The notes beneath the pieces were generated by a model. It did no database searches and had not been told where the DNA came from. It worked only from the letters and a program-made list of their open reading frames with translations. Shown in pieces: positions 43,538 through 55,700 of a stretch of DNA of 64,000 nucleotides. The position numbers and the translations under genes are program-made. Source of the DNA: Escherichia coli. Its GTDB lineage: Bacteria > Pseudomonadota > Gammaproteobacteria > Enterobacterales > Enterobacteriaceae. The DNA lies in assembly GCF_003018255.1 (NCBI RefSeq), contig NZ_CP027440.1, one strand, 5' to 3'. Numbering within the stretch: position 1 is the stretch's first letter; the number at the start of each line of letters is the position of its first letter.

Positions 43538-44251
43538 TCAGTCCAGCTGTACACCCAGGCGGCGGGCGACGGCTTCATAGGCCTCGATCAGGCCACCGAG
43601 GCTCTGGCGGAAACGGTCTTTGTCCATTTTCTCCAGCGTTTCTTTGTCCCACAAGCGGCTGCCGTCCGGGGAGAACTCATCGCCCAGTACCACTTCACCT
43701 TTGTACAGACCAAACTCCAGCTTGAAGTCGACCAGAATGAGACCAGCATCATCGAACAGTTTTTTCAGCACGTCGTTCGCTTTGTAGGTCAGCTCTTTCA
43801 TGCGTGCCAGGTTCTCTTTGCTTACCCAGCCAAAGGTTTCGCAGTAAGATTCGTTGACCATCGGATCGTGCATGGCGTCGTTTTTCAGGAACAGATCGAA
43901 CAGTGGCGGGTTCAGCTCAATACCTTCTTCGATTCCAAGACGTTTCACCAGAGAGCCAGCAGCACGGTTACGCACGACACACTCAACCGGCACCATATCC
44001 AGCTTTTTCACCAGACATTCGGTATCGGAGAGCAGACGCTCCATTTGAGTCGGGATACCCGCTTCAGCCAGTTTGCTCATAATGAAGTAGTTGAACTTGT
44101 TGTTCACCATACCTTTGCGATCAAACTGCTCAATGCGCGCGCCATCCCCTGCTGACGTATCATTGCGGAATTCGAGCACCAACAGGTCCGGGTTTTCCGT
44201 GCTGTATACGGTTTTCGCTTTACCACGATACAACTCAGCTTGCTTTTGCAT
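43538..44251 (-). CDS. purC: phosphoribosylaminoimidazole-succinocarboxamide synthase
   Basis: ORF 43538..44260; start taken at internal Met ([24 protein letters not shown], 237 aa). Confidence 0.94.
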
Positions 44252-44305
44252 CTTTATCACTCCTGGGTGTGAATTAACGTTTTAAAATCTATTGCTGTCT
44301 GGTGT

Positions 44306-44353
<48 letters not shown>

Positions 44354-44404
44354 CCGACAAACAAATTTCGTGCGAATTACCGCTAAAATCGCGTTTTTCT
44401 GCCG

Positions 44405-44420
44405 ACGCACACGTTTGCGT
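44405..44420. promoter_or_regulatory. PurR operator (pur box) of purC
   Basis: acgcacacgtttgcgt, a near-palindromic match to the PurR box, upstream of purC. Confidence 0.7.
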
Positions 44421-44463
44421 ATCATATCAGAAAAAAGGGCCGGATGACTCCAGCCCTGTATTT

Positions 44464-45498
44464 TTACTTGCTAAACGCAGCCTGGAAGACAGCTACCAGC
44501 GCGTCGTTCTGACTCTGAGTCAGAGTATGACCTTTCGGATCGATGAACTGTAGGCTGCTGCGGTTATCTAAATCGCCAACCTGCAGTTTATAGTCACCGG
44601 ATGCCAGACCTGGATCGCTCGCGCCCAGTTCGTGCCATTCGCTGTCAGACAGCGGCTTGTAAGTTACGGCCATGTTGCCCTGCGAACGGGTGCTGTCGGT
44701 CACTTTCATGCCCACTTTTTCCAGCGCAGCTGGCAGACGTTGCCAAACCACATTAAACGGCCCGCGTACGACCAGCATTGGTAAACCGGTGTCATCAGCT
44801 GCACTTTGTACGTCCATAGTGGTGGAGGCACGATTTTGCGCAGCGTTCGCGGCGTCAGTGGCAGATTTATCCAGACCGGCGGAAATAACGTTCATCATCT
44901 CCGTGCTGTAACGCTGCATGGAAGCCGCGTCTGCAACCGGTTTGCCCGCCTGTTCCAGGTTCAGCAGTTTAACCGTAACCGCCTGCTGATAACCCTGCGG
45001 CTTAACAGAGATTTGATAACGACCACGATACTGCTCGTCTTCGTCCAGACGGTTCCATTGTACCCAATCGGTGGTCAGTGTCTGACCAGCATCATCACGT
45101 TGGGTGATGGTGTAGTTTTTCGCCTGCAGCACGCTAACCACCTGCGGCCACAGAGTATTGCCACGACCATTTTCCACCAGCAATGAAGCGGTATCGCCCG
45201 TGAACTGGGTACGCGCGCCAGAAACCAGTGCCAACGGCTGGGCTGGTGGACGAATGTCCAGCGCCTTACCGACAGCACCACTACCGTTGGTCACCGGGAT
45301 TGCATAATCGCCGGAGGTCACCGGCAAAATCATTCCAGCCGGGGCATGAAGCTCCGCAAGCGGTGCCGCTTCCAGGTAGGCTTCATCACCACTGACCTGA
45401 CGCTTATAGCGTGAGTCAGAACTACAGGCAGCGAGTAATAAAACAAGCGAAACACCCGCAACCTTTGCCAGGCGCGACTTTTGAACAGAGTAAGCCAT
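44464..45498 (-). CDS. bamC: outer membrane protein assembly factor BamC (lipoprotein)
   Basis: ORF 44464..45501; start taken at second Met (344 aa); lipobox LLAACSS. Confidence 0.92.
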
Positions 45499-45514
45499 CA
45501 AATCTCCCTAAACT

Positions 45515-46393
45515 TTACAGCAAACCGGCATGCTTAAGCGCCGCTCTGACCGTCTCACGACCACTGTCGGTGATTGGTGTCATTGGCAGGCGCAGCGTAT
45601 CGGTCGCCACAAGACCCAGTTCCTTACATGCCCATTTCACCGGGATTGGATTGGGTTCGACAAATAGTTTGTTGTGTAATGGCATCAGACGCTGATTAAT
45701 AACGCGTGCCTCGGCAAAATGCCCTTCTGCTGCCAGTTTGCACATCTGGGCCATATCACGCGCTGCGACGTTAGCCGTAACGGAAATAACCCCATGACCG
45801 CCTAATTGCATGAAGTCCAGCGCGCTCGCATCATCGCCGCTCAGCAGAACAAAATCATCTGAAACCAGCTCTTTGATCTGGTTTACACGCGTTAAGTTCC
45901 CTGTTGCCTCTTTGATTCCGATAATATTTTTTACTTTCGCCAGACGGCCCACCGTTTCCGGGAGCAGATCGCAGCCAGTACGGGACGGCACATTATACAG
46001 AATTTGCGGCAGGTCAGTATGTTCAGCGATGGCTTTGAAATGCTGATACAAACCTTCTTGCGACGGACGATTGTAGTAAGGGGTTACCGTCAGGCAGCCG
46101 ACGATACCGCTGTCATTGAAGCGCTGCGTCAGGCTAATGGCTTCCGCAGTAGCGTTAGCACCGGTCCCGGCAATCACCGGAATGCGCCCGTCAGCCAGCT
46201 CCAGCGTCATCATCACCACATCAGCATGTTCGTCATGATTTAAGGTAGCGGACTCGCCAGTGGTGCCAACAGAAACGATCGCCGAAGTACCGCTGGCGAC
46301 ATGATAATCAATCAGTTTTTTCATGCTAGCCCGACAGACATTACCTTTTTCATCCATCGGAGTAACAATCGCGACAATACTTCCCGTGAACAT
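45515..46393 (-). CDS. dapA: 4-hydroxy-tetrahydrodipicolinate synthase
   Basis: ORF 45515..46411; start taken at internal Met ([18 protein letters not shown], 292 aa). Confidence 0.94.
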
Positions 46394-46538
46394 GGGCCAT
46401 CCTCTGTGCAAACAAGTGTCTCAATGGTACGTTTGGTATGGCATTAAAAGCAAGCAGACAGAACCGTTCTGATTGTTGTATGCATGTTTTTTTTATGCTT
46501 TCCTTAAGAACAACTCACCCCTTGAAGGAATAACCAGT

Positions 46539-47111
46539 TTGACACTGTCATCGCAACATTATCTGGTGATCACTGCGTTGGGTGCCGATCGCCCTGGAAT
46601 TGTGAACACCATCACCCGTCATGTCAGTAGTTGCGGCTGTAATATTGAAGACAGTCGCCTGGCGATGCTGGGAGAAGAGTTCACGTTTATCATGCTGCTT
46701 TCCGGTTCATGGAATGCCATTACTCTGATTGAATCAACGTTACCGTTGAAAGGTGCCGAGCTGGATCTTTTAATCGTGATGAAGCGCACGACGGCGCGTC
46801 CGCGTCCGCCAATGCCAGCATCTGTCTGGGTTCAGGTCGATGTGGCAGACTCCCCGCATTTAATTGAACGCTTCACAGCACTTTTCGACGCGCATCATAT
46901 GAACATTGCGGAGCTGGTGTCGCGCACGCAACCTGCTGAAAATGAACGGGCTGCGCAGTTGCATATTCAGATAACCGCCCACAGCCCCGCATCTGCGGAC
47001 GCAGCAAATATTGAGCAAGCATTCAAAGCCCTATGTACAGAACTCAATGCACAAGGCAGTATTAACGTCGTCAATTATTCCCAACATGATGAACAGGATG
47101 GAGTTAAGTAA
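46539..47111 (+). CDS. gcvR: glycine cleavage system transcriptional repressor GcvR (tandem ACT domains)
   Basis: ORF 46473..47111; K-12-length product (190 aa, MTLSSQHYLVITALGADRPGIV) requires a TTG start at 46539; start uncertain. Confidence 0.8.
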   Translation: MTLSSQHYLVITALGADRPGIVNTITRHVSSCGCNIEDSRLAMLGEEFTFIMLLSGSWNAITLIESTLPLKGAELDLLIVMKRTTARPRPPMPASVWVQVDVADSPHLIERFTALFDAHHMNIAELVSRTQPAENERAAQLHIQITAHSPASADAANIEQAFKALCTELNAQGSINVVNYSQHDEQDGVK

Positions 47112-47581
47112 TGAATCCACTGAAAGCCGGTGATATCGCACCGAAATTTAGCTTGCCGGATCAAGACGGAGAACAAGTTAATTTGACCGACTTCCAGGGA
47201 CAGCGTGTTCTGGTTTATTTCTACCCGAAAGCCATGACCCCCGGCTGTACCGTACAGGCCTGCGGCTTACGCGATAACATGGATGAGTTGAAAAAAGCGG
47301 GCGTTGATGTGCTGGGTATCAGCACCGATAAACCCGAAAAACTCTCCCGTTTTGCGGAAAAAGAGCTGCTTAACTTTACGCTCCTGTCTGATGAGGACCA
47401 CCAGGTGTGCGAACAATTCGGCGTCTGGGGTGAAAAGTCCTTCATGGGCAAAACCTACGATGGTATTCATCGCATCAGCTTCCTGATTGACGCTGATGGC
47501 AAAATCGAACATGTCTTTGACGATTTCAAAACCAGCAATCACCACGACGTTGTGCTGAACTGGCTGAAAGAACACGCCTGA
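47111..47581 (+). CDS. bcp: thiol peroxidase / bacterioferritin comigratory protein (peroxiredoxin)
   Basis: 156-aa ORF; peroxiredoxin active site (TPGCT); start ATG shares one base with gcvR stop. Confidence 0.94.
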   Translation: MNPLKAGDIAPKFSLPDQDGEQVNLTDFQGQRVLVYFYPKAMTPGCTVQACGLRDNMDELKKAGVDVLGISTDKPEKLSRFAEKELLNFTLLSDEDHQVCEQFGVWGEKSFMGKTYDGIHRISFLIDADGKIEHVFDDFKTSNHHDVVLNWLKEHA

Positions 47582-47598
47582 TTACTTTGCTCCATTCC

Positions 47599-47625
47599 GT
47601 GCTGGCTGCGCTTGCGGCCAGCACA
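47599..47625. other. inverted repeat (gtgctggc-n10-gccagcac) in bcp-perM convergent spacer
   Basis: 8-bp GC-rich stem; no clear U-tract on either strand. Confidence 0.4.
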
Positions 47626-47679
47626 TCTCACATCTTCTCACTGCCCTGCAACACTCGTTTCAAATTTTTTCGCTGAAGG

Positions 47680-48741
47680 TCAGTCTTGCGCGATTTGCCC
47701 ATCGGGCCAGGCGTGAATCACGGCTTTGATCAGCGTCGCCAATGGAATGGCGAAGAATACGCCCCAGAATCCCCACAAACCACCGAAGATCACTACTGAT
47801 AAAATAATGACCAGCGGATGCAGGTTAACCGCTTCGGAGAACAACACAGGTACTAACAGGTTGCCGTCCAGCGCCTGAATGATCAGATACACCGCGAAGC
47901 AGCTCCAGAATTCCGTGCCAGCACCAAACTGGAATAGCGCCACGCCAACCACCGGAATGGTCACCACAAATGCACCAATGTACGGAATAAGTACCGAGAA
48001 GCCGACCAGCACCGCCAGCAGCAGCGAATAGTTCAGCCCGAAGAGTAAGAATCCCAGCCAGGTGGCAATCCCCACCACGATCATCTCCAGCACTTTGCCG
48101 CGGATATAGTTGGTGATTTGTTGATTCATCTCCTTCCACACCTGTCCTGCCAGTCCACGGTTACGCGGCAGCACCCGGCGAACGGCGTTCAGCATCTGCT
48201 CTTTGTCTTTCAGCAGGAAGAAGACCATCAATGGTACCAGCACCAGATAGACGGCAATGGTCAGCAAACCGACCAGCGAGGCGAGGGAAATTTTCACCAC
48301 CGAATCGCCCATGGTCAGCATCCGACTGCGCATATTTTCGGCCATTGCATCAATAATGCCCGCATCCATTAACGCCGGATAGCGGCGCGGCAACGTGGCG
48401 GCAAAGTCAGAAAGCTTATTGAGCATCCCCGGCATATCGCGGATTAAGTAGATGCCCTGCTGCCAGGCGATAGGCAGTACCACGAACGCCATCAGTAGCA
48501 ATATACCGACGAAAACCACCAATACAATCGACGTCGCCCAGCGGCGGGAGCAGCCAATAGATTGCAGGCGCACGGTTGGCCATTCCAGCAAATAGGCCAG
48601 CACAATAGCCACCAACAGCGGAGCAAGCAGGCCACTAAAGAAAAAGATAATGCCAAATCCGGCAACTAAAATAACCAGCAAGGCAATCGCTTCCGGGTCG
48701 CTAAAACGGCGGCGATACCATTGCATCAACATTTCGAGCAT
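47680..48741 (-). CDS. perM: AI-2E/PerM family permease
   Basis: 353-aa polytopic membrane ORF. Confidence 0.9.
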   Translation of the reverse strand: MLEMLMQWYRRRFSDPEAIALLVILVAGFGIIFFFSGLLAPLLVAIVLAYLLEWPTVRLQSIGCSRRWATSIVLVVFVGILLLMAFVVLPIAWQQGIYLIRDMPGMLNKLSDFAATLPRRYPALMDAGIIDAMAENMRSRMLTMGDSVVKISLASLVGLLTIAVYLVLVPLMVFFLLKDKEQMLNAVRRVLPRNRGLAGQVWKEMNQQITNYIRGKVLEMIVVGIATWLGFLLFGLNYSLLLAVLVGFSVLIPYIGAFVVTIPVVGVALFQFGAGTEFWSCFAVYLIIQALDGNLLVPVLFSEAVNLHPLVIILSVVIFGGLWGFWGVFFAIPLATLIKAVIHAWPDGQIAQD

Positions 48742-48953
48742 ACAGACCTTCCCTGAACCTCAAGAGCGGGATTGCGATCCGCAATTGTATCGAAATGCCA
48801 CAAAAAAGACTTCGCTTTTTATGACGGATTCAGGAAACTGAAAAGTCATTTGAGTGGGCTAATCTTCGCCGTTACACTCAAAGGCGGCGCGGTGGGAACG
48901 ATATTTCACAGTATCGGTCAAATGACTATCTCCAGAAATACAGGATAGAGGTT

Positions 48954-50417
48954 ATGTTCAGGCAGTTGAAAAAAAACCTGGTTGCAACCCTCATTGCTGC
49001 TATGACCATTGGTCAGGTAGCCCCGGCGTTTGCCGACAGCGCAGACACCTTGCCGGATATGGGAACCTCCGCAGGAAGCACACTTTCCATTGGTCAGGAA
49101 ATGCAGATGGGCGACTATTATGTCCGCCAGCTACGCGGCAGCGCGCCGTTAATTAATGATCCGCTGTTAACGCAATACATTAATTCGCTAGGAATGCGTC
49201 TGGTTTCGCATGCCAATTCGGTTAAGACACCGTTTCATTTCTTTCTGATCAACAACGATGAAATTAACGCCTTTGCTTTCTTTGGCGGCAACGTGGTGCT
49301 GCACTCTGCCCTGTTCCGTTATTCCGATAACGAAAGTCAACTGGCTTCAGTTATGGCGCACGAAATCTCCCACGTCACCCAACGTCACCTGGCGCGAGCG
49401 ATGGAAGATCAGCAGCGCAGCGCGCCGCTGACCTGGGTCGGCGCGTTAGGTTCTATTTTACTGGCGATGGCCAGTCCGCAGGCGGGGATGGCTGCGCTGA
49501 CCGGTACACTGGCGGGAACGCGCCAGGGGATGATCAGCTTCACCCAGCAAAATGAACAGGAAGCGGACCGCATTGGTATTCAGGTGCTGCAACGCTCAGG
49601 ATTCGATCCGCAGGCGATGCCGACCTTCCTCGAAAAATTACTCGATCAGGCGCGTTACTCCTCGCGTCCGCCGGAAATTTTATTGACTCACCCGTTGCCG
49701 GAAAGTCGTCTGGCAGATGCCCGCAACCGTGCTAATCAGATGCGCCCGATGGTGGTGCAGTCGTCGGAAGATTTCTATCTGGCGAAAGCGCGCACACTGG
49801 GGATGTATAATTCCGGACGTAACCAGCTCACCAGTGATTTGCTGGATGAATGGGCGAAAGGAAACGTTCGTCAGCAACGAGCGGCGCAATATGGTCGTGC
49901 TTTACAGGCGATGGAAGCCAATAAATACGACGAGGCGCGTAAAACGCTGCAACCGTTACTGGCGGCAGAACCTGGCAACGCATGGTATCTCGATCTGGCT
50001 ACTGATATCGATCTTGGGCAAAACAAAGCCAATGAGGCGATCAATCGTCTGAAAAATGCCCGCGATTTACGCACCAATCCGGTGTTGCAGCTCAACCTGG
50101 CGAACGCTTATCTGCAAGGCGGTCAACCACAAGAAGCGGCCAATATTCTGAATCGCTACACCTTTAATAATAAAGATGACAGCAACGGCTGGGATTTGCT
50201 GGCACAGGCGGAAGCCGCGCTAAATAACCGCGATCAGGAGCTGGCTGCGCGAGCAGAAGGTTATGCGCTCGCCGGACGACTCGATCAGGCCATTTCGCTG
50301 TTGAGTAGCGCCAGTTCGCAGGTGAAATTAGGCAGCCTGCAACAAGCGCGTTACGATGCGCGCATCGACCAGTTGCGCCAGCTGCAGGAACGCTTTAAGC
50401 CTTATACCAAGATGTAA
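48954..50417 (+). CDS. bepA: beta-barrel assembly-enhancing protease BepA (M48 peptidase + TPR)
   Basis: 487-aa ORF; signal peptide; HExxH ([10 protein letters not shown]). Confidence 0.93.
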
Positions 50418-50437
50418 TTCGCATTAAAGGAAGAACA

Positions 50438-50797
50438 ATGACCAAACAGGTAAAAATCTACCATAACCCACGCTGTTCAAAGAGCCGGGAAACGCTGAAC
50501 CTGCTGAAAGAAAACGGCGTGGAGCCAGAAGTGGTGCTCTACCTTGAGACACCCGCCGATGCGGCAACGCTGCGTGATTTGCTGAAAATGCTGGGGATGA
50601 ATAGCGCTCGTGAATTGATGCGCCAGAAAGAGGATCTTTATAAAGAACTGAACCTGGCTGACAGTTCGCTTAGCGAAGAGGCGCTGATTCAGGCAATGGT
50701 GGATAATCCGAAGCTAATGGAGCGCCCGATTGTGGTCGCGAATGGCAAAGCGCGGATTGGTCGTCCACCGGAGCAGGTACTGGAAATCGTGGGTTAA
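50438..50797 (+). CDS. yfgD: ArsC-family arsenate reductase-like protein YfgD
   Basis: 119-aa ORF; N-terminal Cys (YHNPRCSKSR). Confidence 0.9.
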   Translation: MTKQVKIYHNPRCSKSRETLNLLKENGVEPEVVLYLETPADAATLRDLLKMLGMNSARELMRQKEDLYKELNLADSSLSEEALIQAMVDNPKLMERPIVVANGKARIGRPPEQVLEIVG

Positions 50798-50827
50798 GAA
50801 GTGCTCCATCGCTAGTTGAAGCACATT

Positions 50828-50860
50828 GCCGGATGCGACGCTTGCCGCGTCTTATCCGGC
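50828..50860. repeat. REP element (gccggatgcgacgcttgccgcgtcttatccggc)
   Basis: Canonical REP palindrome between convergent yfgD and hda. Confidence 0.8.
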
Positions 50861-50902
50861 CGACGAATACTATGGGTGCATATCCGACAATAAACGTCTT
50901 GT

Positions 50903-51604
50903 CTACAGTTTCAGAATTTCTTTCACAAACGGAATGGTCAGCTTACGTTGCGCGGTAATCGACGCACGATCCAACTGATCCAACGTCATAAATAACGTGC
51001 GCATCTCTCTGTCGAGCCGCTTCAGCAAGAAACGCCCCACATCTTCCGGCAGTTCAAAACCACGCAAACGCGCGCGTAACTGTAGCGCCTGCAACTTATC
51101 TTCATCAGAAAGTGGCTGCAATTTGTAGATCTGCCCCCAGTCGAGACGCGACGCGAGATCCGGTAATCCAAGATTCAACTGCCGCGGTGGACGATCGCCG
51201 GTGATTAACAACCGTGTTTTGCCCGATTCCAGAATTCGATTGTAGAGATCGAAAATCGCCATCTCCCACAACTCATCGCCTGCAATACACTCAATGTTGT
51301 CGATACAGACCAGCGACAAATGCTCCATACCGTCGAGCACTTCCGGAACAAACCAGGTGCGTTTATCCAGCGGGACATAGCCCACCGCATCGCCACGCTG
51401 CGACAATTCCGCGCAAGCCGCGTGCAGCAGATGGCTGCGCCCCGCGCCTTCGCGTGCCCAGAGATAGATGTAACCGCTATGTTCCTGACGCAGCACGTTT
51501 TGCAGCGCGGCCAGTAAAGAGGAGTTATCCCCCGGCCAGAAACTTGCAAAGGTTTCGTCGTCAGGAAGATAAAGTGGCAAAGAGAGCTGTGCCGGTGTGT
51601 TCAG
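50903..51604 (-). CDS. hda: DnaA-inactivating protein Hda (RIDA)
   Basis: ORF 50903..51649; mature 233-aa protein ([18 protein letters not shown]...) recalled to initiate at a CTG, which falls at 51604; AAA+ box. Confidence 0.85.
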
Positions 51605-51698
51605 AGATACCTCAACCAGGATTTCACAAAATCGCGAGAAGTTTACCACAGAATCCCATGATGTTTGAACCGGGCAGCAACACTGCCCGGTCGGTACA

Positions 51699-52988
51699 TT
51701 ATTTGTCTGTTATATCCGCGTCTTCTGCGTCCAGCACCACTTCTTCAGGGCGCAGCATACTAATCAGTTTGAAGATCAAACTTAAGCCGATACCGACGAT
51801 GGTCGCCAGCGCCATACCTTTCAGCTCCGCCGCGCCAATGTTTACCTTCGCGCCACTGACGCCGATGATCAAAATAACGGAAGTCAGGATCAGGTTCTGT
51901 GCTTTGTTGTAATCCACTTTCGATTCGATCAACACACGAATACCGGAAGCACCGATGACACCGTAAAGCAGCAGCGAAACGCCGCCCATCACCGGCAATG
52001 GAATCATCTGGATAGCTGCAGCCAGTTTACCGACGCAGGAAAGCAGGATAGCGAAAATCGCCGCACCGCCGATAACCCAGGTACTGTAAACACGGGTGAT
52101 CGCCATCACGCCAATGTTTTCTCCGTAAGTGGTGTTTGGCGTGGAGCCAAAGAAGCCGGAGATCACGGTCGACAAGCCGTTAGCAAACATCGAACGGTGC
52201 AGACCTGGATCGCGCAGCAGATCTTTTTTGACGATATTAGCCGTTACGACCAGGTGCCCTACGTGTTCGGCAATAACCACTAACGCCGCTGGTAGAATAG
52301 TCAGAATGGCAAACCACTCGAAGCGCGGCGTATAGAGGGTCGGCAGCGCAAACCAGTGAGCATTAATAATCGGCGTGGTATCGACAATTCCCATTGCGAA
52401 AGAGAGCGCGTACCCCACCAGCACGCCAATTAAAATCGGGATAATTGCCAGGAAACCACGAAACAGCACGGAACCTAAAACCGTGACCGCCAGGGTGGTA
52501 ATAGAGATGATGATGGTTTTGGAGTCTGGCGTTTGCCCTTCAGCCGGGAGTAAACCCGCCATACCGGCAGCTACGCCCGCCAGCTCCAGACCGATGACGG
52601 CAACGATTGCGCCCATTGCCGCAGGTGGAAACAGCACGTCCAGCCAGCCGGTCCCCGCTTTCTTCACGATAAAAGAAACCAGGCAGAACAGCACGCCGCA
52701 CATAATAAAGCCGCCCAGCGCAACTTCATACCCCAACGGCAACAGTAACAATACCGGTGAAATAAAGGCAAAGCTGGAACCAAGATAAGCCGGAATTTTC
52801 CCTTTACAGATGAAGAGATACAGCAGTGTTCCTATACCGTTAAATAACAGTACAGTCGCCGGGTTAATATGAAATAAGACGGGCACCAGGACGGTTGCAC
52901 CAAACATGGCGAACAAATGTTGCAAACTAAGCGGGATTGTCTGTAAAAGTGGCGGTCTTTCACTCACCCCGATAGCACGGCGCGTCAT
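51699..52988 (-). CDS. uraA: uracil:proton symporter (NCS2 family)
   Basis: ORF 51699..53030; start taken at internal Met ([20 protein letters not shown], 429 aa). Confidence 0.93.
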
Positions 52989-53027
52989 AGTATTATCCTC
53001 TGTATTATGTGTTATAGGCGCTTTACT

Positions 53028-53060
53028 CAAAAAAAAGCCGACTCTTAAAGTCGGCTTTAA
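53028..53060 (-). terminator. intrinsic terminator/attenuator between upp and uraA
   Basis: Minus strand reads aaagccgactttaagagtcggc followed by a T8 tract. Confidence 0.7.
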
Positions 53061-53073
53061 TTATTTTTATTCT

Positions 53074-53700
53074 TTATTTCGTACCAAAGATTTTGTCACC
53101 GGCATCGCCGAGGCCCGGAATAATGTATCCGTGCTCGTTCAGTCCCTGGTCAATCGATGCAGTATACAGTTCGACGTCCGGGTGCGCTTTTTCCAGCGCA
53201 GCGATACCTTCTGGCGCAGCGACCAGCACCAGAACTTTGATGCTGCTGCAGCCCGCTTTTTTCAGCAGGTCGATGGTCGCGATAACGGAACCACCGGTTG
53301 CCAGCATTGGGTCAACGATCAGCGCCATACGCTCATCGATGTTAGAAACCAGTTTCTGGAAGTACGGTACCGGCTCCAGCGTTTCTTCATTACGGTACAT
53401 ACCGACGACACTGATGCGCGCACTCGGAACGTTTTCCAGCACACCGTCCATCATCCCAAGACCCGCACGCAGAATTGGCACAACGGTAATTTTCTTACCT
53501 TTGATCTGGTCGATTTCTACCGGGCCGTTCCAGCCTTCGATAGTGACTTTTTCCGTTTCGAGGTCGGCGGTCGCTTCGTAAGTCAGCAGGCTACCCACTT
53601 CGGAAGCGAGTTCGCGAAAGCGCTTGGTGCTGATATCTTGCTCACGCATCAGTCCCAGCTTGTGTTTGACGAGTGGGTGTTTGACTTCCACGATCTTCAT
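53074..53700 (-). CDS. upp: uracil phosphoribosyltransferase
   Basis: ORF 53074..53727; start taken at internal Met ([20 protein letters not shown], 208 aa). Confidence 0.94.
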
Positions 53701-53727
53701 ACTCTTTCTCCTTTGAGGGGCAGCCAC

Positions 53728-53750
53728 AAAAAAAATCGACGGATTATACC
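53728..53750 (-). promoter_or_regulatory. upp promoter initially transcribed region with T8 tract (UTP-sensitive reiterative transcription site) and adjacent -10 (tataat)
   Basis: Minus strand reads ggtataatccgtcgattttttttgtggctgcccctcaaaggagaaagagtATG. Confidence 0.75.
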
Positions 53751-53945
53751 TCCTTTCTTCAAGGCGGCAATATTATTTTCGTTGACTTTAGTCAAAATGA
53801 TAACGGTTTGAGATAAAGTTATTTTATATTCAAATGGTTATGGAAGAAGATTATTCCATCCGAAAACGATCCTTTGCCCTAGTACAAGTATTCTTTCGCC
53901 GCGCGCCTGGGGAAAAGACGTGCAAAAAGGTTGTGTAAAGCAGTC

Positions 53946-53961
53946 TCGCAAACGTTTGCTT
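53946..53961. promoter_or_regulatory. PurR operator (pur box) of purMN
   Basis: tcgcaaacgtttgctt about 65 nt upstream of purM start. Confidence 0.75.
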
Positions 53962-54006
53962 TCCCTGTTAGAATTGCGCCGAATTTTATTTTTCTACCGC
54001 AAGTAA

Positions 54007-55061
<1,055 letters not shown>

Positions 55062-55062
<1 letters not shown>

Positions 55063-55700
55063 TGAATATTGTGGTGCTTATTTCCGGCAACGGAAGTAAT
55101 TTGCAGGCAATTATTGACGCCTGCAAAACCAACAAAATTAAAGGCACCGTACGGGCAGTTTTCAGCAATAAGGCCGACGCGTTCGGCCTTGAACGCGCCC
55201 GCCAGGCGGGTATTGCAACGCATACGCTCATCACCAGCGCGTTTGACAGTCGTGAAGCCTATGACCGGGAGTTGATTCATGAAATCGACATGTACGCACC
55301 CGATGTGGTCGTGCTGGCTGGTTTTATGCGCATTCTCAGCCCGGCGTTTGTCTCCCACTATGCCGGGCGTTTGCTGAACATTCACCCTTCTCTGCTGCCG
55401 AAATATCCCGGATTACACACCCATCGTCAGGCGCTGGAAAATGGCGATGAGGAGCACGGTACATCGGTGCATTTCGTCACCGATGAACTGGACGGTGGCC
55501 CGGTTATTTTACAGGCGAAAGTCCCGGTATTTGCTGGTGATACGGAAGATGACATCACCGCCCGCGTGCAAACCCAGGAACACGCTATTTATCCACTGGT
55601 GATTAGCTGGTTTGCCGATGGTCGTCTGAAAATGCACGAAAACGCCGCGTGGCTGGATGGTCAACGTCTGCCGCCGCAGGGCTACGCTGCCGACGAGTAA
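55062..55700 (+). CDS. purN: phosphoribosylglycinamide formyltransferase 1
   Basis: 212-aa ORF; 1-nt overlap with purM stop. Confidence 0.94.

Follow-up and report, generated by a model that had tools for sequence, protein, structure and literature searches.

PurR, the purine repressor of E. coli, is a dimer of the LacI/GalR family whose gene lies elsewhere on the E. coli chromosome. Structures of the protein are available in the PDB (e.g. 1pnr and 1bdi), several of which include operator DNA. In complex with hypoxanthine, PurR represses the biosynthetic genes of the IMP pathway, purC and purMN included, and the repression of its target genes in this pathway is stated to be complete (PMC3159470). 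For the purC and purMN operators of the K-12 pur regulon, the same paper cites He et al. 1990 and Meng et al. 1990. The motif instances at purC and purM-purN both lie under PurR ChIP-chip peaks in K-12 (Cho et al. 2011, PMC3159470), with a peak log2 ratio of 2.08 in the presence of adenine versus 1.52 (purC) and 0.98 (purMN) in its absence (Table 1 of that study).

The same 16-mers are present in the 64-kb stretch of E. coli chromosome analysed here (the window), which has the gene order tmcA-ypfJ-purC-bamC-dapA ... upp / purMN-ppk. A preliminary description had placed them near 44405..44420 and 53946..53961, and both were found at exactly these coordinates (Table 1). We consider these 16-base near-palindromes to be the known PurR operators at the purC and purMN promoters, with a probability of about 0.97; nothing that was found contradicts this reading, and the operators are already known, textbook elements. 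The preliminary description had covered them by the single range 44405-53961, of which the sites themselves stand, but not the idea of one feature, as these are two 16-bp sites 9.5 kb apart.

Table 1 Features of the purC and purMN control regions, with positions in the window. TSS: transcription start site.
Feature	Position	Strand	Remarks
purC PurR operator (pur box)	44405..44420	-	ACGCACACGTTTGCGT / acgcacacgtttgcgt; -6..+10 of purC TSS
purC promoter, probable -10 hexamer TATGAT	44421..44426	-	-12..-7; abuts the operator directly
purC transcription start (+1)	44414..44414	-	7th base of the pur box; 5' UTR of 163 nt
REP element in purC 5' UTR	44318..44351	+	2 mismatches to REP consensus, 0 expected by chance
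purC (SAICAR synthetase), regulated gene	43538-44251	-	Assigned from annotated E. coli genomes at 100% identity
purMN PurR operator (pur box)	53946..53961	+	TCGCAAACGTTTGCTT / tcgcaaacgtttgctt; -35..-20 of purM TSS
purM promoter, -10 hexamer TAGAAT	53969..53974	+	-12..-7; spacing to the TSS of Kim et al. 2012 (PMC3415461) fits
purM transcription start (+1)	53981..53981	+	44-nt 5' UTR
purM-purN operon (AIR synthetase, GAR transformylase), regulated genes	54025-55700	+	K-12 annotation

The purC box, which reads ACGCAAACGTGTGCGT in the sense of purC, is identical to positions 2597772-2597787 of K-12, and the purMN box to positions 2621118-2621133. Both had been described as intact, which agrees with their identity to the K-12 MG1655 sequence and with the divergent E. 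coli strains sampled, where variation adjoins the boxes and none falls inside them. The near-palindromy claimed for them is also borne out: of the 8 half-site pairs, 7 are complementary at purC and 6 at purMN. Each site is a 16-bp imperfect palindrome that matches ACGNAAACGTTTGCNT and has a central CpG. Compared with the consensus ACGCAAACGTTTGCGT, the purC box carries one mismatch and the purMN box two, the central CG being kept in both. The regulated genes are equally close to those of K-12: the PurC protein encoded in the window is identical, while PurM differs by one residue and PurN by two. The start codon of purM is a GTG, at 54025.

A simple promoter scan detected sigma-70-like sites neither close to the purC box nor for purM, so that published transcription start data were used to place the promoters. 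For purC, the K-12 start at 2595803(-), known from a single high-throughput dataset with 24 reads and a 5' UTR of 163 nt (Kim et al. 2012, PMC3415461 Table S1), was transferred to the window. The 51-mer reported for this start ends in ...CTGATATGATACGCAAA, and the spacing to the mapped start suggests that TATGAT is the purC -10 hexamer. GGTAAT/CAGAAA, which lies downstream of the box, was first considered as the -10 and then dropped, given the +1 inside the box according to Kim et al. 2012 and TATGAT as the -10. The purC-bamC intergenic region aligns with that of K-12 over its full 212 bp without gaps, and the five positions that differ all flank the box. For purM, the same table gives a K-12 start at 2619175(+) (40 reads, 5' UTR of 44 nt). 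Mendoza-Vargas 2009 puts the start 4 nt further downstream (-40 relative to the start codon); that study gives the -10 as 'ccctGTTAGAATtgcg' and scored the purMN box at 17.04 as a PurR site. The purMN promoter region is identical to that of K-12, and the box covers the -35 hexamer and the spacer, with 64 bp from the box to the GTG. According to the published starts, both boxes overlap core promoters, where one would expect repression by occlusion, and the preliminary description had likewise called their positions the expected ones for PurR repression.

Scanning with a PurR matrix, which had been put forward as the check, gave high scores for both sites. The matrix was built from 25 published PurR motif instances, without those of the window itself (purC, purMN and yfgO). 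The purC box scored 18.5 bits (i.i.d. p = 3.4e-7) and ranked first of 128,000 strand-positions, while the purMN box scored 17.0 bits (p = 8.7e-7) and ranked third in the window. Under leave-one-out scoring, the 28 published sites span 7.4-25.3 bits, and both values fall inside these limits. Three matches of at least 16.9 bits were observed, compared with 0.28 per 64 kb in simulated first-order Markov windows, and three matches to the consensus with at most three mismatches were found versus 0.49 expected from shuffles. For a window of 64 kb, these sequence statistics by themselves carry only moderate weight.

Other matches were also seen in the window. The one at 52597-52612 (17.9 bits) is internal to uraA and is probably due to chance; a role as a roadblock operator was rejected, as there is no ChIP peak at this place and the synonymous positions are unconserved in a related contig. 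Such an equal-scoring probable false positive indicates that a score is insufficient without promoter context and conservation. A weaker match inside hda (51062-51077, three mismatches, 12.0 bits on the better strand) was put down to chance and rejected, about 1.8 matches of this kind being expected per window. Within the range that it covered, the preliminary description rightly listed the two sites at purC and purMN, but missed a third published PurR motif, located at 48681-48696 inside the 5' end of perM.

It could be argued that the two 16-mers are near-palindromic by chance, or that they serve as operators for another LacI/GalR regulator (Cra, GalR/GalS, CytR or similar) that shares the central AAACGTTT-type core. 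The 0.28 matches expected at this score and the apparently fortuitous match in uraA are in line with this, as is the likeness of LacI-family operators to one another, a structure-based study having found GalR/GalS and PurR sites hard to separate energetically (PMC2577325). However, both matches lie in the promoter regions, of about 200 bp, of two pur genes, and both are identical to K-12 sites under adenine-responsive PurR ChIP-chip peaks (PMC3159470), which together make chance untenable. The outer GC/GC positions fit the PurR consensus, and comparison between genera shows conserved boxes in diverging flanks. We therefore regard this explanation as very improbable.

The conservation of the purC box was followed in 34 close enterobacterial purC loci, of which 27 contain it and 7 do not. 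In the 27 loci, which were anchored on the box itself and represent 24 distinct sequences, the box is 0.99 identical to the consensus, versus 0.70 and 0.57 for the 25-nt flanks. The exact 16-mer is kept in Escherichia, Enterobacter, Citrobacter, Kluyvera, Pluralibacter and other genera. For purMN, 5400 of 5424 E. coli genomes have the same 40-mer around the box. A scan of metagenome contigs for purM was informative for 6 of 80 (most of the others being non-enterobacterial and without pur boxes), and the box was exact or different at one position in four contigs with divergent flanks, whose PurM is about 91-94% identical. The motif CTGTTAGAAT and its spacing to the purMN box are kept in contigs L137, L104, L110 and L126. 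For both boxes, this footprint points to purifying selection acting on the site as compared with its flanks.

The idea that the palindromes act as RNA hairpins (attenuator or stability elements) and not as DNA operators can be set aside as the least credible. In its favour, the boxes are inverted repeats, the one at purC being situated a short way downstream of the bamC terminator hairpin. However, the purMN box is located entirely upstream of the start, outside the transcript made from the purM promoter. The purC mRNA begins at box position 7, so that it includes no more than the 3' part of the palindrome and the hairpin cannot form. The conservation is of exact sequence, and neither box region matches any Rfam family.

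The reading of the two boxes as PurR operators presupposes that the repressor is present. The purR gene lies outside the 64-kb window, but 5424 of 5426 complete E. coli genomes carry it, and two of the complete genomes match part of the window at 100% identity, which makes its presence in this genome very likely. Judging from the identity to the K-12 sites, PurR would be expected to occupy both boxes in this strain; for in vivo occupancy and repression at the two operators we rely on the literature. The corepressor, hypoxanthine or guanine, would bind PurR, upon which the dimer would recognise the pur box, with each monomer taking one half-site around the central CpG step. Since the boxes overlap the core promoters (-6..+10 and -35..-20), bound PurR would block the binding of RNA polymerase or initiation. 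At purMN, it would sit on the -35 hexamer and the spacer and exclude the polymerase. At purC, it would lie over the start site, abutting TATGAT, and could block polymerase binding, open-complex formation or initiation. Steric occlusion is presumably the exact step that is blocked.

The leader between the purC operator and the start codon contains an Escherichia-specific insertion of about 100 nt, of which the REP element is a part. In E. coli and E. albertii, 168-169 nt separate the box from the ATG, versus about 65-76 nt in most other genera. In the Enterobacter group, a -10-like hexamer (CATAAT/TAATAT) is found just downstream of the purC box, compared with TATGAT just upstream of it, and the box is inverted in two lineages. 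It is conceivable, though rather doubtful, that the purC control region evolved around a fixed operator, with promoter turnover and, in Escherichia, a lengthened leader containing the REP. If these changes are real, promoter turnover would have left one and the same PurR site acting at a promoter position that varies from genus to genus, and the REP-containing leader might add an Escherichia-specific post-transcriptional control.

With regard to the known systems, de novo purine synthesis is still under its standard feedback control in this strain; the result has no discovery value, and its main use is as a positive control for motif-based annotation. Compared with the purC and purMN operators of K-12, the 16-bp sequences show no difference at all, and the promoter elements (TATGAT for purC, CTGTTAGAAT for purM), the regulated genes and the distances to the start codons are the same. 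What differs is the spacing of the two operators, which are 9.5 kb apart in this strain, without the hyf-focB block, and 23.3 kb apart in K-12. The hyf operon is absent. The purF, purL, purHD, purEK and purT operators share with the two boxes the consensus ACGNAAACGTTTGCNT, the central CG and the overlap with the core promoter, but are located between the -35 and -10 hexamers, whereas the purC box lies over the start site according to the transcription start data. Relative to the pur-regulon consensus, the purC box has a C at position 6 of one half-site, while the purMN box departs at outer positions (T1 and T15). The intragenic operators of purB and purR, which are of the roadblock type, involve the same repressor and the same motif; they are however situated inside a transcribed or coding region, where elongation is blocked, while the purC and purMN boxes overlap promoters.

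PurR operators (pur boxes) had been proposed upstream of purC and purMN, and 16-mers matching such operators are located at exactly the coordinates claimed (see table). The range 44405-53961 under which they had been entered holds in that both 16-bp sites are real, but not as a single feature, since the sites stand 9.5 kb apart. As purC is on the minus strand, its box reads ACGCAAACGTGTGCGT in the gene sense. Compared with the palindromic consensus ACGCAAACGTTTGCGT, the purC box has one mismatch and the purMN box two, and 3 matches with at most 3 mismatches are found in the window versus 0.49 expected from shuffles. The PurR motifs tabulated by Cho et al. 2011 (PMC3159470, Table 1) served to build a PurR matrix; the three of them located in the window were excluded, giving a training set of 25 sites. 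With this matrix, the purC box ranks first of ~128,000 strand-positions (i.i.d. p = 3.4e-7) and the purMN box third in the window (p = 8.7e-7), with 3 matches of at least 16.9 bits observed versus 0.28 in first-order Markov simulations. The matrix score by itself is suggestive, but short of overwhelming; what settles the assignment is the context: two transcription units for purine biosynthesis each have one of the boxes in their short promoter region.

Window coordinates of the pur boxes, promoter elements and neighbouring features
Feature	Position	Strand	Sequence	Remark
purC box	44405-44420		ACGCACACGTTTGCGT	18.5 bits
purMN box	53946-53961		TCGCAAACGTTTGCTT	17.0 bits
perM motif	48681-48696	minus	CCGGAAGCGATTGCCT	13.8 bits
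uraA motif	52597-52612		ACGGCAACGATTGCGC	17.9 bits, rank 2; codons 126-131 (GAIVAV)
purC -10	44426-44421		TATGAT	
purC +1	44414			
purC leader	44252-44404			
REP element	44318-44351			inside purC leader
purC start codon	44251	minus	ATG	
purM -10	53969-53974		TAGAAT	
purM +1	53981			
purM start codon	54025		GTG	
bcp-perM junction	47582-47679			hyf block missing
Tandem REP copies	14693-14926			three, 100-bp spacing

The uraA motif scores as high as the true operators, and its sequence is identical in K-12. No published PurR ChIP-chip peak lies over it, and in a related contig with 87% identical UraA (L126) synonymous changes remove its central CG. Most likely the hit is a false positive, a chance match arising from the GAIVAV coding sequence. 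The perM motif, which was unlisted in the preliminary description though inside its range, falls within the coding sequence of perM (yfgO), at nt 46-61, and not between genes; it is exactly the motif reported for a new PurR ChIP-chip peak with the label 'yfgO/yfgC' (Cho et al. 2011, PMC3159470).

Start sites were taken from the K-12 genome-wide data of Kim et al. 2012 (PMC3415461, Table S1), the columns of which were checked. The purC start is at 2595803(-), with a leader of 163 nt and an upstream 51-mer ending in ...CTGATATGATACGCAAA, and the purM start at 2619175(+), with a leader of 44 nt and a 51-mer ending in ...GTTAGAATTGCGCCG (PMC3415461). These data place the purC +1 at the seventh base of the box, which therefore covers -6 to +10, and also define the purM +1 and both -10 hexamers; the purMN box spans -35 to -20, that is, the -35 hexamer and most of the spacer. 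The purM start is 4 nt farther downstream, with an unchanged -10, in Mendoza-Vargas et al. 2009 (PMC2760140). That the boxes act as RNA hairpins is excluded, since the purMN box is untranscribed from its own promoter and the purC transcript covers only the 3' part of its box. Both placements are consistent with PurR repressing initiation by occluding RNA polymerase, which bears out the earlier view that the boxes occupy the expected positions for PurR repression; judging from these positions, the blocked step would be either the binding of polymerase or the formation of the open complex. PurR, a dimeric member of the LacI family, requires hypoxanthine or guanine for binding. The PDB contains PurR structures (1pnr is one example), some of which include operator DNA.

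The REP element in the purC leader is part of a ~100-nt insertion between the operator/start site and the start codon, which accounts for the leader length. E. coli and E. albertii have this insertion and other genera lack it, the distance from box to ATG being about 65-76 nt in Enterobacter, Citrobacter and most other genera. Three Enterobacter and Leclercia purC loci (L008, L009 and L019) retain the exact box next to changed promoter-like hexamers; the Enterobacter group has no TATGAT upstream of it and CATAAT/TAATAT just downstream. Two other loci (L025 and L068) have the exact box in inverted orientation, with TTGACG in front of it. These differences may reflect promoter turnover, with the operator remaining fixed.

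Of the 34 genomes whose PurC is at least about 89% identical, 27 have the purC box, almost always as the exact 16-mer (Escherichia, Enterobacter, Citrobacter, Pseudocitrobacter, Phytobacter, Leclercia, Kluyvera, Pluralibacter, Siccibacter and others). At purC loci, the box is 0.99 identical to the consensus, and the two 25-nt flanks reach 0.70 and 0.57. Other good pur boxes are found upstream of purC in the more distant Erwinia, Serratia, Providencia, Morganella, Tatumella and Rosenbergiella, all Enterobacterales. No strong pur box was found within 450 nt upstream of purC in Yersinia, Photorhabdus, Pectobacterium, Cedecea neteri, Mangrovibacter, Brenneria, Rahnella or Proteus (loci without one: L023, L026, L027, L031, L032, L036, L039, L042, L044-L047, L067); some such loci have a common GCGTTAAAT-like stretch in its place. 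A metagenome scan for purM returned mostly unrelated bacteria, without a box. The purMN box, as TCGCAAACGTTTGC(T/C)T, and its spacing to CTGTTAGAAT are preserved amid otherwise divergent flanks in four contigs encoding a PurM about 91-94% identical. Among E. coli genomes, 5400/5424 have an identical 40-mer around the purMN box. The 40-mer spanning the purC box occurs in 5425/5426 and commonly varies (identical in just 1132), the changes sitting immediately outside the box in all sampled variants. The purR gene lies outside the window; 5424 of 5426 complete E. coli genomes have it.

The window belongs to the E. coli chromosome: a 3.1-kb stretch spanning the purC site matches complete E. coli genomes at 100% identity and is annotated there as purC, bamC and dapA. 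By comparison with K-12 MG1655, the gene order is tmcA-ypfJ-purC-bamC-dapA / gcvR-bcp / perM(yfgO) / bepA-yfgD / hda-uraA-upp / purM-purN-ppk. This strain lacks the 13.6-kb hyfABCDEFGHIJR-focB block, which separates bcp from yfgO/perM in K-12; its hyf-less junction is also seen in 1126/5426 complete E. coli genomes. Two minus-strand Rfam naRNA4 (CssrE) matches (75.5 bits each) overlap the tandem REP copies.

The description of both boxes as intact is accurate, as neither differs from K-12 (U00096.3, 2597772-2597787 for purC and 2621118-2621133 for purMN). The purM promoter region is identical to K-12 from 53909 to the start codon, and all 212 bp of the purC-bamC intergenic region give a gap-free alignment, with 5 differing positions, none of them in the box. 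Both boxes show all testable defining features of a PurR operator. Their sequences are the motifs under the purC and purM-purN ChIP-chip peaks of Cho et al. 2011 (PMC3159470). When adenine is added, both peaks reach the scale maximum, a log2 ratio of 2.08; without it they stand at 1.52 (purC) and 0.98 (purMN). The authors singled out the strongly adenine-dependent occupancy at both, and include purC and purMN in the IMP-pathway genes repressed by PurR-hypoxanthine (PMC3159470). The purM site was also scored as a PurR site (17.04) by Mendoza-Vargas et al. 2009 (PMC2760140). The boxes are the unchanged purC and purMN operators of the K-12 pur regulon, and PurR binding to them is documented for the identical K-12 sequence.
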